Assembly: GCA_963729625.1 (NCBI GenBank)
Contig: CAVSOU010000011.1
Location: 640,001 to 704,000 of the forward strand
Source: an uncultured bacterium
GTDB taxonomy: Bacteria > Chloroflexota > UBA5177 > JANWHV01
Reading direction: 5' to 3'
Length of the DNA: 64,000 bases
The notes below the pieces were generated by a model. The model searched no databases, was not told where the DNA came from, and saw only the letters and a program-made list of their open reading frames with translations. Shown here piece after piece: positions 39,656 to 45,200 of this stretch; position 1 is the stretch's first letter; each line of letters begins with the position of its first letter. The position numbers and the translations under genes are program-made.

Positions 39656-40001
39656 GAGGCACCATTGCGGGATCTCCCGCGCCGCCTGCTCCAACCCCGC
39701 ACGGTCCTCGTCACTCACCGTGAACTCCATCCCGCCTGCTCCTTTCAGCAGCCAGGATCCCTCATCCATCCCTACGGTGCCATGTACTTAGCGTCACGAT
39801 CGCGTTCGGCGAGGATCTCAGCTCAGGCCGCTGCGTGCTGTCCTGACGGCGAGCCGCAACCGGCCACGAACGTCGTGGCTGGACAGATCGCGTTGTTGCC
39901 CAGCACCGCTGCAACATGCCCAGAGGCGGGTGCGTGCCTCTGGCAAGGCTGCGGCGATGGTATCTTGACCCAGTGAGCGCACGCAGTAAGGAAGGACGGA
40001 C

Positions 40002-40916
40002 ATGGATATCGCGATCATGATTGAGGGCCAGATGGGGCTCACGTGGCCCCGCTGGCAGAGAATCGCACGGGCCGTCGAAGATCTGGGCTTTGCCGGGCTC
40101 TATCGCTCCGACCACTTCACTAATCCGGAGCCGCCGGACGAAGCGTCGCTGGAGCTGTGGGTATCGCTGACCTGGCTCGCCAGCCACACGTCCCGCATCG
40201 AGTTCGGGCCGATGGTCTCCCCTGTCTCCTTCCGCAACCCGGTGATGACGGCACGGATGGGCAGTGCCGTGAACGACCTCTCGGGTGGCCGCCTGCATCT
40301 CGGCATCGGTGCCGGCTGGCAGGAACGCGAGCACGCGAGCTTCGGCTTCGATCTCCTACCGCTGCGGCAGCGTCTGCAGCGGTATGCGGAGGGTCTCGAG
40401 GTCATCACGCGCCTGCTGCGGGGCGACGCGCCGGTGACCTACGAGGGCGAATTCTACCGCCTGCGCGAGGCAATGCTGTTGCCGCGACCGCAGCGGCCGG
40501 GCGGCCCCCCGCTCGTCATCGGCGGCAAGACGGGCGTGCTGCGATTGGCCGCCCGCTACGCCGACGAGTGGAACGCACCGTTTGCCACGCCGGAGGACTT
40601 CCAGTCCATGAGCGCGCGCCTGGACGAGTTGCTGGGCACGGCCGGTCGCGACCCGAGCACGGTCCGCCGCACACTGATGACGGGCCTGGTGTTTGGGCGT
40701 GACGACGCCGAGGTTCAGGCAAAGATGGGCAGCAGAGATGCGTCGATCGACGCGTTATGGCGCCGGGGCATCGTCGCCGGCACGGCGGGGGCGGTGGTCG
40801 AGCAACTGGGACGGCTGGCCGAGGTGGGCGTGCAGCGCGTGCTGCTGCAGTGGCTGGATCTGGACGACATCGACCGGCTGGAGGCGCTGGCGCGGGCAGT
40901 GTTGCCGCAGGGGTAG
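40002..40916 (+). CDS. LLM-class (luciferase-like) F420-dependent oxidoreductase
   Basis: IEGQMG, RSDHF, FRNP, DLSGGRLHLGIGAGW..REH, PLVIGG and AARYADEWN motifs. Confidence 0.88.
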   Translation: MDIAIMIEGQMGLTWPRWQRIARAVEDLGFAGLYRSDHFTNPEPPDEASLELWVSLTWLASHTSRIEFGPMVSPVSFRNPVMTARMGSAVNDLSGGRLHLGIGAGWQEREHASFGFDLLPLRQRLQRYAEGLEVITRLLRGDAPVTYEGEFYRLREAMLLPRPQRPGGPPLVIGGKTGVLRLAARYADEWNAPFATPEDFQSMSARLDELLGTAGRDPSTVRRTLMTGLVFGRDDAEVQAKMGSRDASIDALWRRGIVAGTAGAVVEQLGRLAEVGVQRVLLQWLDLDDIDRLEALARAVLPQG

Positions 40917-41238
40917 GGTGGAGGCGACCCGCTAAAATGATGACCCACTGATCATGCTTGCTCCCTCAGTCCTGATGATCCGGTTGGCGGCCGCCAGGCT
41001 GGCTAGGTGCTGCGGGGTCGACTGGCGCGCCATGTCGGCAGGACCGACGGACGCTCTTGACCTGAGCGTGAACTGCACGGGTGCAGAAACGAGTCCTGCA
41101 GCGTCTGCTCGAGTGTGCCGCCGCCGGACCTGGTCTTGCGCCGCGGCACTGGCAAGCACTGGCCGGGCCGTCCGCCAGGTGATTCGGGGCTTCCGCCGCG
41201 AGGGCCTGGAGGTGTTGCTCGCTATACTTGCGCCCAGA

Positions 41239-41906
41239 GTGCGCCGCATCATCCGGCGCTGGATCCCTTTCACAGAAAGGAGGGGTAAGGAAGAGCAGAC
41301 CTCTGGGTCAACGGCTTACCTGGCAGCGAAAGCCAAAGGGGACTGTAGCATGCCGCTAAAGCGCGAGTGGTCGGAAGACGCGTAGGGCCACGTCGTGCAA
41401 GACCCGCGCGATAGGGTGAAAGCCGTATTGCCTGAACCGCAGCCTCCAGCGATGTAAGCAACCATCCTCTGGCAGCGCGTCTGACGCCAGGGCCAGCACG
41501 ATAGGGCGACTGACTTGGGGTCGTCCGAAGCTTCCGCGTGCTGGGCGGTCGGGCGTGACCCGACTCAAGGAGACGGACACGGCACCTACGTCGCGCTCGA
41601 GACGTCCAGCGTCGTGGGAATGCGGGATCGCCCGCCGTGCCGCGAGGCACAGGGCGACGGAGCCGCCGTAGTACTCCGCGCACGGGAGAGCCGTGTACAT
41701 GGGGAAGGGCGGCAGGTACATGCGGCCTGGGGAGATGCCGGTAGGCGAGATGCCGAGCGCCGAACTCTTCCGAGGCCATCGGCAGCACAGCGCTGTCGTC
41801 GTCAGGTGCTGGAAAGCGCAGTGCGGTGAAAGCCGCACGCTGCGTTTGGGGAGAGGCGGACAGAAAAGGCTTGGTTGTTCAGGACCTCGCTGGCCGCCTA
41901 CTCCAC
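41239..41906 (+). ncRNA. ORF-less group II intron (668 nt)
   Basis: 5' GTGCG at 41239; domain III-like segment at ~41653-41716; 34-nt domain V 41814-41847 with AGC triad and GAAA loop; domain VI GGAGAGGCGG/CCGCCT-A-CTCC with bulged A41900; 3' AC end; no RT ORF. Confidence 0.88.
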
Positions 41907-42270
41907 CCACTCGAGCAGGACCATGGGGACAGTGGCCGCACAGGGCCGTCATTTACAGATCGGCGCCCGATGCAACGAATGTTTGGATATGCGGAGGCGT
42001 CCGCGTGCTATCGCACCGAGTCGGCGCGGAGCGCGAGCGGCTCGTCGTGAGACCCGCGCCGAAGGCATGCATGCCAGATTGAGATCAACCCCATCAAGGT
42101 AGACCGTAGCCACGGGAAAGGCGCAGCTGTCCGCGATCCGTCGGTCTTGTCAGGCCTTGGTGCGATCCGGCGGACCACAGTTGATGGCAATACCGTCGGT
42201 CAGCTTCAGGGGTTCGTCGTCCAGCGATGGATTTGATTATGCGTGACGAGCGTCGACCGGCGATGCCGCA

Positions 42271-45200
42271 TCAAGCGGTCGGACTTGTCCAGCGCCAGCC
42301 CAGCCGTCGAACCTCCGGGCCGATCCGCTCAACGATATCTAGGCGTTCGGCGTCCGCTGCCACCGCCAGGTGGGTGGCAGCCTGCTCACGCGCCACTGCC
42401 GCCAGGTCCGCCAGCGCGGGCCCGAGTTCCAGCATGTTGCCACTGGCCCGCGCCAGGTCTGCGGCATTACGCAAGGCGGTCACCGCCCCTGTGCCATCGC
42501 CTCGGCTTGCCAGCAGCAATCCCCGTGCCCTCGCCAGTGTGGGCTGATTCCACGCTGTGCCGTCGCGCTCCACCCGCGTCCCAGCCTGCGCCAGCACGCG
42601 CGCGGCATCCGGATGGCGGCGCCGGGCCAGCACGAGCGCGAGGAGTGCGATATCCACGTTCGCCATACCCGTCGCCTGCAAACCGACCAGTTCGCGGGCC
42701 AGCGCCTCCGCCTCGCCGAACCGCCCTTCCAGCTCCATTCGCCAGGCCAGATCGAAGAGCCAGTTCTGCAACGCGACAACCCGTCGGTCTCCTCGCTGCC
42801 GTGCCGTCGCCACCGCGTCGTGCAACAACCCGCGCGCGCTATCCCGGTCGCCAGTCATTGTGGCGAGAAGCACAGCCACGTCCTGGGGCCACTCATCCGG
42901 ATCCACGGCCTGGGCTCTGTGCAGGAGCGCCCGGCCCTCCGCCCAGTCGCCGGCCAGGTAGCATTGCCCGGCGAGGAACAAGGACCCGATGGCAATACCA
43001 GCCGGACGCCCGGTCTGCTCGTCTGCGGCCAGAGCGCGACGGTGATCCGCATAGGCGGCGGCAAAATCTCCGGCCAGACAGTGAGCATTGGCGCGCTGGG
43101 TCCAGATGCGAGCCAGCAACACGGCATCGCCTGCCGCGTGGGCAGCGGGCTCCGCCTCGTCCAGGCGAGCGATAATCTCCTGCGGCCGGGTGCCTGCGCC
43201 GAGCTGCACGAACGTTAGCTCGAGCAGGGCGCGCGCCCGCACGGCACTCTCGCCGAGTTGCTCAGCCAGGGCCAGGCCACGCGCGCCTAATGCGGCAGCC
43301 GCTGTCCGATCCCCGCTAAAGTAGGCAGCGCGTGCGGCATCCAGCAGCAGGCGGGCGAATTCGGCATTCTCCTGCTCCGGCGGCCACAACGCCAGCGCCG
43401 CGTCCAAGTGTGGCGCCGCAGCATCAGTGTCGTAGGCGAACTGGTGTACCCAGGCGATGTCCCGGTGCGCACGTGCCCGACCCAGGCAATCGCCTAACTG
43501 CTCAAAGGCGTGCAGCGCGAGCGCCAAGGCCGCCAGCGCCTCCTCCCGCCTGCCGAGGTCGTGCAGGACGCGGCCCAGCTTGAGTCGTACCTCAGCCGCT
43601 TCGGCCATGCGTTCTTGCTCCAGGAGCAAGTCTAGCGCGGTCCGATACTGCTCCTCAGCCTGCCTTGCGGCGTACACGCCGGCTGCGTGGTCTCCAGCCT
43701 GGATAGCATAGCGCGCCGCACGCGCATCGTCACCGGCCGCCAGGAAATGGGCGGCCAATTCGCCGGCCATCTCCGGTCGTTGCCCGCGCTCCCGTTCCAG
43801 CGCCTCCCCGGCCCGCAGATGTAGCCGCCGCAGCCGGAATCGCGGCACCTCCTCGTAGAGCGTTTGGGCGATCAGCTGATGCGTGAAGGCGTAGCGCTCG
43901 CCGCGTCCCGCTCGCCGCTCTTGCAGCACCTTCAGCGCTAGCGCCGCCTCCAGGTGCTCAAGCACCGCCGCCTCCGTCTGCTCCGCCGCACCCACCAGTA
44001 CGGGCAGCTCAAATTCCTGACCCAACACGCTGGCCTGCCGCAAAAGCGCCTGCGCTTCGGGCACCAGCCGGCCCAGCCGTTGCCCAACTGCCGATCGCAC
44101 GCTCTGGGGCACAGTCATGTGCTCGAGGGCCGCGCGATCCCAGCCGTCACCCGAACGACCGGCTGTGCCTTGCTCCAGCAGCGCGCGCAACACCTCCTCG
44201 GTGAAGAAGGGATTGCCCTCGGTGCGCTCGTGCACCAGGTCGCGCAGTTCCTCGGTGACGGTCGCCACGTCGCAGCGGTCGCGGATCAGCGCGGCAGTGC
44301 CCGCGGGTGGCAGACCGCGCACGACCAACACGTCCGCCACGCGGTCTCGAGTCAGCGCCGTTACGGTGGCCTCCAGGGGGTGCTGGCGCCCCACCTCTAC
44401 GTCCCCGTAGGTACCCAAGAGTAGGACGCGCTCGCCGCGCAATGATCGCGCCAAATGGGCCAGCAGCTCCAGGGATGCGCCGTCGGCCCAGTGCAGATCG
44501 TCCAACGCCAGGGCGAGTGGCCCTTCCCTGGCCAGGGCGGTCAGGAAGGCGGCCACCGTGCGCAGCACGCGCAGACCGGCTTCCGGGCCCTCGCTGCGGG
44601 CTGGAACACTGAGCAGCTCAGGTACCAGCCGGCCAAGCTCGCCGAAGCGTTCAACCGCGGCAGCGCGCAGGGCAGGCGATGCGAGCGACCAGGCCGTGGT
44701 CAGGACTTCCACGAAGGGGCTGAAGGCGGTGCCGCTGCGTTCCTCGTAGCAGCGTCCGACCAGCACACGCATGCCCCGTTCTGCTGCCAGCAGCAGCGCT
44801 TCTTGGGCCAGCCGGGTCTTGCCTACGCCCGGCTAGCCGGCTAGCCATAGCATCGTGCCATTCCCGTCGATGCTGGTCTGGAGGGCCGCACGGATCGTCG
44901 TCATCTCCGACTCCCGTGCGGCGAGAGCGTGCAGCGGCCTGGCACCCAGGTAGCCGCCGGACGGCATCGTGGCAGGCGGGCAGGTAGGGGTACGCGCACC
45001 CACCTTGCCACTCTCGGCGTATGCGGTGACGCTTGGTGGCAGGACTTTGCGATGACCGGCAGCTACGAACTCGGCCAGGTCCTTCCCGCTCAGTGCCAAG
45101 CCTTCGATCAGCAGAGCGAGTGTGTCCCTGCGCGGTAGCAGCCGTACACCGCGCTCCAGATCGCTGATGCCGCGTTTGCTCAGGCCCGCACGCTCGGCCA

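Follow-up and report, generated by a model that had tools for sequence, protein, structure and literature searches.

The window analysed here is a stretch of 64,000 nucleotides (nt) from an uncultured Chloroflexota bacterium (C11:640001-704000 of a 5.41-Mb assembly, G000, with 21 contigs and 87% completeness), and the element in question is a 668-nt group II intron without an open reading frame (ORF) on its + strand. The intron lies in non-coding DNA between a luciferase-like monooxygenase gene (40002-40916, + strand), ~320 nt upstream on the same strand, and an AAA_16/TPR gene (42271-44772, - strand). No promoter-like or terminator-like sites were found within 40700-42400, and no second occurrence of the flanks was found in the window's own genome. 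An intron-less allele was not found in the same-genus genomes G001-G004, which align only over the luciferase-like gene (~70%) and not over the flanks. The intron and its target comprise the following features, numbered from the first base of the window (D1 to D6, domains I to VI; EBS and IBS, exon- and intron-binding sites; RT, reverse transcriptase; MFE, minimum free energy):

41228..41238, + strand: 5' exon target, with IBS2 core UUGC (41228-41231), G 41232 and IBS1 CCCAGA (41233-41238)
41239..41906, + strand: whole ORF-less group II intron, 668 nt, its ends set by homology with relatives and with a partial copy on contig C8, and with an RF00029 match
41244..41625, + strand: domain I, closing helix 41244-41248 with 41621-41625, from RNAalifold of 14 sequences and pair counts
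41450..41467, + strand: EBS2 hairpin, loop UAAGCAAC (41455-41462), core GCAA (41458-41461), covarying with exon positions -12 to -7
41504..41526, + strand: EBS1 hairpin, loop UGACUUGGG, EBS1 CUUGGG (41514-41519), delta A 41513
41628..41657, + strand: domain II, a 30-nt hairpin (helices 21-22), compensatory changes in 6 of 10 pairs
41663..41712, + strand: domain III (helices 23-25), overlapping a weak Rfam D1D4-1 match (41631-41710)
41713..41811, + strand: domain IV remnant, ~99 nt, from alignments to RT-bearing relatives and to the ORF-less family and from the MFE fold
41715-41721 with 41804-41810, + strand: basal stem of D4, from the family alignment and the MFE fold
41724-41777, + strand: D4a stem-loop, enclosing a Shine-Dalgarno-like stretch and the former RT start ATG 41750; the MFE fold reproduces the stem
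~41780-41803, + strand: ~25-nt residue of the RT 3' end, from the family alignment
41814..41847, + strand: domain V, 34 nt, AGC triad 41815-41817, GAAA loop 41828-41831, AC bulge 41837-41838, from the RF00029 alignment and covariation
41850..41904, + strand: domain VI, bulged branch-point A 41900, the 7th base from the 3' end
41907, + strand: first 3' exon base (delta' = C), unpaired with delta A 41513

Across the 64-kb window, Rfam gave a single match at gathering level, RF00029 (Intron_gpII) at 41812-41906 on the + strand, with 58.9 bits against a gathering score of 40 (E 5.1e-9). Group II introns begin with GUGYG, end with AY and carry a bulged branch-point A 7-8 nt from the 3' end. The element begins with GUGCG at 41239, bulges an A at 41900 and ends with AC at 41905-41906, all of which a first-pass annotation, made by a model from the letters of the window, had already pointed out. 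Homology to 15 relatives begins at 41239, and the 3' boundary is fixed by the C8 copy, whose homology ends precisely at 41906. Independent runs supply public contigs that match the window without a difference over 41293-41555 and 41775-41925, the second piece crossing the 3' junction, and a 358-nt soil contig spans 41637-41908 gap-free with 25 differences, representing another ORF-less D4 of the same build. No joints were seen in the public DNA contigs that match the locus. Judged by its homology, termini and fold, 41239-41906 (+ strand) is a genuine, complete and structurally intact ORF-less group II intron, a new member of a kind that is already known. A public contig from run X1 that matches 41683-41713 departs from this build: in it the end of D3 (41713) is joined straight to CGCCTACTCCAC, the last bases of D6, making it a further-deleted derivative without D4, D5 and most of D6.

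Intron DNA was matched in 6 of 41 related genomes, the window's own included, and in 23 of 401 genomes sampled from the Chloroflexota. Full-length RT-bearing introns of 2.4-3.1 kb, with D5-D6 matches and long RT frames, are present in G021, G011, G338 (two), G341 (two), G234, G352, G178, G397 and G047, and such relatives are ~70-74% identical to the window in D1-D3. The proteins of two relatives were scanned; both carry RVT_1 and Intron_maturas2, with an AI2M-like HNH in one, and both match group_II_RT_mat at 241-268 bits, below the NCBI equivalog cut-off of 300. The relatives' RT matches LtrA of Lactococcus lactis (5g2x) over residues 22-588 (E 6.7e-121). It is through ribozyme homology only, the window copy having no intron-encoded protein (IEP), that the intron can be provisionally placed in the LtrB-like (mitochondrial-like, IIA-type) lineage. 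At another locus (L023, G034:C430, 408-2420) an intron relative begins within or just after a TnpB-like frame (408-1829), and a second intron 5' end (GUGCGCC...) lies ~13 codons into its RT frame, on a contig that ends before the whole arrangement is covered; this is likely a twintron.

To obtain the fold, D1-D3 of the window and 13 relatives (nine of them RT-bearing) were aligned and folded with RNAalifold. The consensus holds 127 pairs, 102 of which show at least one compensatory double change. Standard pairs fill 92.7% of the cells of this structure, as opposed to 71.3% once shuffled (none of 500 shuffles reached the observed value) and 35-43% with the partners slid by 1-3 columns, a control that is somewhat favourable because the structure was derived from the tested alignment, though the margin is still large. 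An intact catalytic core had been claimed beforehand, and the covariation supports it. The window keeps 124 of the 127 pairs, where the 13 relatives keep 96-124, and it is fully consistent with the D5-D6 consensus (16 sequences; 35 pairs, 25 with compensatory changes), including the predicted 34-nt domain V with its AGC triad, GAAA loop and 2-nt bulge. These comparisons support an intact catalytic core (D1-D3, D5 and D6) in a ribozyme that is compact and GC-rich, at ~570 nt without D4.

What the intron lacks is most of domain IV, of which ~99 nt are left (~95 nt had been estimated). In the D3-D4 alignment, GGTAGGCGAGATGCCGAGCGCCGAA... of the window aligns with the Shine-Dalgarno/start-codon region of the relatives' RT ORFs, and from the ATG at 41750 (MPSAELFRG) the alignment with the RT starts MRNAETVLG, MRDANTVLG and MQRADTLLK runs codon by codon, while the bases after it, as far as ~41777, form the 3' side of the D4a stem and match RT codons 6-10. 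The RT ORF of the relatives runs for ~600 codons to a stop that precedes the 3' strand of the basal stem in D4 by a few bases, and ~1.7-1.8 kb of ORF sequence is missing from D4 of the window. By this alignment, ATG 41750 is the retained RT start and the intron arose by internal loss of its IEP ORF, as had been proposed on both counts from the window alone; the lost IEP would be LtrA-like. An assignment of CGAGGCCATC (41771-41780) to the C-terminal tail of the RT, made on a 10-nt match to G007, was withdrawn because the family alignment and the fold place it in the D4a 3' strand, at RT codons 8-10. The folding energy of D4 is unremarkable (z -0.55).

The exon-binding loops vary with the exons that they face. 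The EBS2 hairpin was located by scanning for complements of exon positions -14 to -6, and the EBS1 hairpin is the one already put forward at 41504-41526 for its five pairs out of six with CCCAGA, correctly so, since its loop covaries with the 5' exons across copies. Complementarity between cognate loops and exons summed to 155 across 15 copies, a value that none of 20000 exon permutations reached. EBS1 pairing is perfect (6/6) in G045, G224, G234, G178, G047, G338b, L076, L079, L091, L096 and others, with EBS1:IBS1 sequences as different as UAAUCC:GGAUUA (G045), AAUCAG:CUGAUU (G224), CGUUGU:ACAACG (G234), ACCGUG:CACGGU (G178) and UAAAAG:CUUUUA (G338b). At EBS2, the metagenome locus L076, a clade mate of the window, pairs GCAU:AUGC where the window pairs GCAA:UUGC, which is a compensatory change. 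In IIA introns, delta beside EBS1 pairs with the first 3' exon base, and in IIB introns there is an EBS3 in the coordination loop. Delta and delta' are paired in 14 of 24 family copies (27 of 20000 shuffles as high). Two other EBS1 candidates, TCTGGG at 41303-41308 (a perfect complement of CCCAGA) and CTCTGGC at 41467-41473, were rejected because they are strands of conserved helices (4/5 and 17) in all relatives, whatever the exon. As a separate observation, the 3' flanks of L076, L083, L091 and the window (41907-41935) contain a loose CTGAAC(A/G)T-GGG-like stretch ~20-30 nt past the insertion site, and the upstream flanks of the same members have ATG-rich stretches; what these introns target may be an element with weak conservation and not only the IBS.

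The window intron is one of a family of ORF-less copies. Complete copies are present in three other genomes, with at least three junctions overall: the G045 copy (680 nt) has the D4 architecture of the window and an identical 22-nt D4a block, the G344 copy (659 nt) differs in its junction and the G224 copy (769 nt) has a third. The window and G045 copies are 66-70% identical in D1-D3, D4 and D5-D6 alike, and their flanks are unrelated. The only RTs of G045, G344 and G224 are 33-43% identical to the relatives' IEP, so that a close IEP was found in none of the four draft genomes with complete ORF-less copies (these three and G000). An exact 22-mer scan of genome contigs matched the G045 contig only. 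A metagenome scan with a degenerate D4a motif, which was built from ORF-less copies and thus cannot gauge their frequency, returned 39 loci, 29 of which align to the intron. D5 follows within ~75 nt of D4a in 28 of these 29, the remaining one being cut by the contig end. The other 10 loci were rejected as introns (5 match in the motif region only and 5 have no blastn match; none has RF00029). No cognate RT was found behind the ATG in any of the 39 motif loci, the only RT being a 35%-identical one ~950 nt downstream in L090. Crude clustering of flanks yields 17 contexts, including that of the window, some of which could be one site. Six metagenome loci (L074, L078, L082, L084, L089 and L092) form an ORF-less subfamily with an even shorter D4 and a ~60-nt insert in domain VI.

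In a tree built on D1-D3 and D5-D6, with D4 omitted, the window shares a clade, at 98/99 support, with five ORF-less loci from metagenomes (L083, L091, L079, L076 and L103). A separate tree rejects a single clade of the four ORF-less genome copies (approximately unbiased test, p-AU 2.8e-5); a pairing of the window with G045 is compatible with that tree (p-AU 0.335), which is no demonstration of a clade. Compared with the consensus of the five other clade members, the window has changed 32 of the 127 D1-D3 pairs, with only 3 unpaired, and 17 of the 20 pairs altered on both sides stay paired in both, which indicates that divergence after the ORF loss occurred under RNA-fold constraint. Within the clade, L076 and L103 are identical at 644 of 661 positions and L083 and L091 at 649 of 663 (97-98%), whereas no more than 24-34 positions match between the 60-nt flanks within each pair, and upstream the one thing in common is ATGCGCT(CCCC), the IBS2-IBS1 target. 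Near-identical ORF-less copies thus sit at different sites with matching IBS (L076/L079/L103 and L083/L091), which indicates that introns already without an ORF were recently inserted at new sites. The clade of the window would then have moved since it lost its ORF, which implies mobilisation in trans.

We consider it highly probable, on the strength of these sequence comparisons, that the window holds a non-autonomous, ORF-less LtrB-like intron that lost its RT ORF and was inserted by reverse splicing through EBS1/EBS2 with an IEP acting in trans. Its ancestor would have lost ~1.7-1.8 kb of the RT/maturase gene from domain IV while keeping the basal stem of D4, a short remnant of the 3' end of the ORF, and D4a with its ribosome-binding site, start codon and initial ~9-10 codons. 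The ribozyme would have gone on evolving under RNA-structure constraint. Insertion at this locus was most likely guided by EBS1/EBS2, with the IEP presumably supplied by another intron, and the copy may now be stranded, its helper not having been found in the assembly. The first-pass annotation had the intron spliced or mobilised in trans, for which clade mates in unrelated flanks and the EBS/IBS covariation speak. No helper RT was found in the assembly. Trans-mobilisation, IEP dependence and any current activity of the window copy are inferred.

Several observations are weak points of the identification or weigh against this reading. The Rfam check that the annotation had proposed succeeded for Intron_gpII only: in a permissive scan of 40000-43500 the group-II-D1D4-1 match at 41631-41710 reached 23.6 bits, below its threshold of 35, so that the Rfam D1D4 models were unable to assign the intron class. 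The pairing of EBS1 CUUGGG with CCCAGA includes one G-U pair and leaves an A.C mismatch at -1, EBS2 GCAA pairs with UUGC over a 4-bp core only in the family register, and delta-delta' is an unpaired A.C. The last of these is not a sign of decay, as delta-delta' is also unpaired in four of the five nearest clade mates (only L103 pairs, as C-G). The flanking exon frames have no Pfam match and no convincing ORF, and hence no selection for splicing is seen here; none of the RNA runs checked for the locus contains it. A single clade of all 14 D4a-type ORF-less copies was rejected (p-AU 0.00046), which leaves a single ORF-loss event for the whole family unsupported. Finally, all other intron pieces in the window's genome are fragments, and PF00078, tblastn and TIGR04416 found no intact group II RT in its assembly, an incomplete draft of a kind in which multi-copy introns often fail to assemble, so that "not found" does not mean "absent".

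The fragments are as follows. Intron DNA matches four further places in the genome, and the window holds the only complete copy. The C8 sister copy (C8:1027168-1027551) is split into two neighbouring pieces, which match query 186-461 at 85% identity and query 563-668 at 91%. Its initial ~185 nt and all of D4 are absent (window 41700-41799 missing), D3 being joined to D5. On C16 and C20 there are 61-nt D5 pieces, each 80% identical to the window intron. RF00029 has six matches in the genome, of which four exceed the cut-off, and no RT frame was found upstream of any. The match on C4 is preceded by the tail of an HNH domain, which makes it the 3' fragment of a different intron, and those at C16:2215 and on C20 have a broken D6; we rejected these other D5 matches as helper introns and regard them as relics. 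A ~2.5-kb segment with D5 and the broken D6 is repeated at C16:1-2593 and, inverted, at C20:49493-52080, and this repeat probably broke the assembly.

For the RT, PF00078 detected one frame, on C17 (L012:29-2676), with a gene bearing an MmeI target-recognition domain immediately upstream; the best match of the frame is Drt4, with 242 bits (below the cut-off of 450), and it was rejected as an intron helper, being a Drt4-like defence RT beside an MmeI-type gene. The tblastn search with the relatives' RT returned only C11:716238-716555, 12 kb past the end of the window, 69% identical over 106 residues (G021 RT residues 409-514). This belongs to a 106-111-aa piece of an RT of the LtrA-like lineage (C11:716220-716558) that is broken by one TGA and one TAG. 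TIGR04416 added weaker fragments and a 305-aa frame on C13 (L113:1216-2130, - strand) that carries RT block 7 and the GIIM maturase domain in full (PF08388, E 1.1e-21); no RT fingers or palm were found in it, nor D5/D6 within 1.2 kb, and the frame encodes a truncated IEP or else a maturase that stands alone. Of the sister copies and RT-encoding relative for which the annotation had suggested a genome search, this genome thus yielded the C8 sister and no intact RT relative.

Such a genome is what one would expect if the intron were a stranded fossil, which arrived while a helper RT was present, became inert, either unspliced or no longer transcribed, when the helper was lost and has not yet decayed. 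We regard this as possible but doubtful. It would account for the missing intact RT, the same-lineage RT surviving only as a piece with two stops, the truncated C8 sister, the non-coding exons and the mismatches at -1 and delta-delta', and it agrees with the same-genus genome G001, where no RT and only intron fragments were found. However, the structure is as intact as that of RT-bearing copies (124 of 127 pairs), the assembly is incomplete in the way described, and the divergence within the clade is overwhelmingly compensatory, a pattern that reveals constraint until recently and fits a copy that is still active as well as one just stranded.

It is improbable that the intron splices without any IEP and persists as a splicing-only element. 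Bacteria offer one known precedent, C.te.I1 of Clostridium tetani, which the review PMC4424553 presents as splicing without an IEP, and the compact, GC-rich, well-paired ribozyme in a genome with no IEP found would suit such an element. On the other hand, D4a, described in PMC2882425 as a critical IEP-binding region (DIVa) of IIA introns, is retained across the family; members of the clade have moved recently, which needs an RT; and no host gene at the locus would select for splicing. That the locus is no more than a D5-like hairpin formed by chance, or intron pieces joined into a chimera by the assembly, is practically inconceivable: the element is homologous and collinear over its full length with 14 introns of other genomes and with 29 metagenome loci, covariation is strong, and public contigs from independent runs are identical to the window at 41293-41555 and 41775-41925, the sub-threshold group-II-D1D4 models being the one point in favour of such an origin.

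Taking the preferred reading of a trans-mobilised intron one step further, we tentatively raise, as something we would not bet on, that the family is a long-lived and diversified ORF-less IIA lineage spreading between genomes as a group II intron parasite, in the manner of a miniature inverted-repeat transposable element ("MITE-like"), made of ribozyme and D4a only and borrowing distant or transient IEPs. Its copies are 66-98% identical and occur in ~16 metagenome flank contexts and at least two Chloroflexota genomes, and the same D4a motif recurs on different ribozyme clades, which under this hypothesis would mean that a docking module for a single "driver" IEP was exchanged or arose by convergence. 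ORF-less introns are described in the relevant passages of PMC4424553 as short-lived and as residing nearly always with related IEP-encoding introns, C.te.I1 being the one exception known, and a "MITE-like" lineage, if real, would be contrary to the view of bacterial ORF-less derivatives as rare and short-lived. If the family does spread without a resident cognate IEP, it bears on the origin of non-autonomous retroelements and of shared splicing machinery, and on the number of such introns that RT-based surveys miss. The points of interest are the spread of the family over several genomes and its apparent lack of a cognate RT. The window intron itself is a clean, natural, compact ΔORF ribozyme of the LtrB-like lineage that led to a metagenome family of at least 29 loci, and its practical value is modest: structural studies or targetron work could use it as a IIA ribozyme that is small, GC-rich and well constrained.

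Among known systems, the TeI3 introns of Thermosynechococcus and the engineered Ll.LtrB-ΔORF come nearest. Ll.LtrB-ΔORF is an intron used with LtrA in trans, a laboratory construct of roughly 0.9 kb. The window intron is in effect a natural ΔORF version of Ll.LtrB: the IEP of its relatives matches LtrA over its whole length, the EBS2 and EBS1 hairpins are ~45-50 nt apart with delta adjoining EBS1, and the D4a stem-loop carries the Shine-Dalgarno stretch and AUG. It differs from the construct in its size of 668 nt with a 30-nt D2, its high G+C and the lack of a cognate IEP found nearby, and from Ll.LtrB in that delta-delta' is not kept in its own clade. TeI3 and TeI4 of Thermosynechococcus elongatus belong to the chloroplast-like IIB lineage, whereas the IEP of the window's relatives is LtrA-like. 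The account of T. elongatus in Mohr, Ghanem & Lambowitz (2010, PMC2882425) describes 17 ORF-less introns with one common DIVb deletion and N- and C-terminal ORF remnants. As there described for TeI3, the window family proliferated after ORF deletion, and the window intron has lost its ORF while keeping N- and C-terminal remnants and DIVa. Reliance on IEPs of other introns is reported as experimentally shown for TeI3 and is what the comparisons suggest for the window family. TeI3 copies and their driver IEPs are described in one genome, and all 17 T. elongatus copies with one breakpoint, whereas the window family is spread over several Chloroflexota genomes and many metagenome contigs, with at least three junctions and a single D4a-type origin rejected, and no related IEP intron was found in the 87% complete assembly of G000. 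With C.te.I1 the window intron shares being an ORF-less bacterial group II intron with no IEP gene found in its genome, an absence that, unlike that described for C.te.I1, rests on an incomplete assembly; C.te.I1 is described as lone and robustly self-splicing, whereas the window intron belongs to a multi-copy, multi-site family and keeps the IEP-docking D4a. A pipeline survey of ORF-less introns (PMC8919778) does not contain the word "Chloroflexi" in its main text.

At locus L051 (G344:C2) the 659-nt ORF-less intron (143-801) is nested in domain III of an outer intron (~100-1093), whose D4 is also without an ORF and whose D5-D6 lie at 962-1093. Archaeal ORF-less introns nested in other introns were reportedly described by Dai and Zimmerly in 2003. 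In both cases ORF-less copies home into related introns, but the IEP classes and hosts differ, and the copy in the window is not nested.

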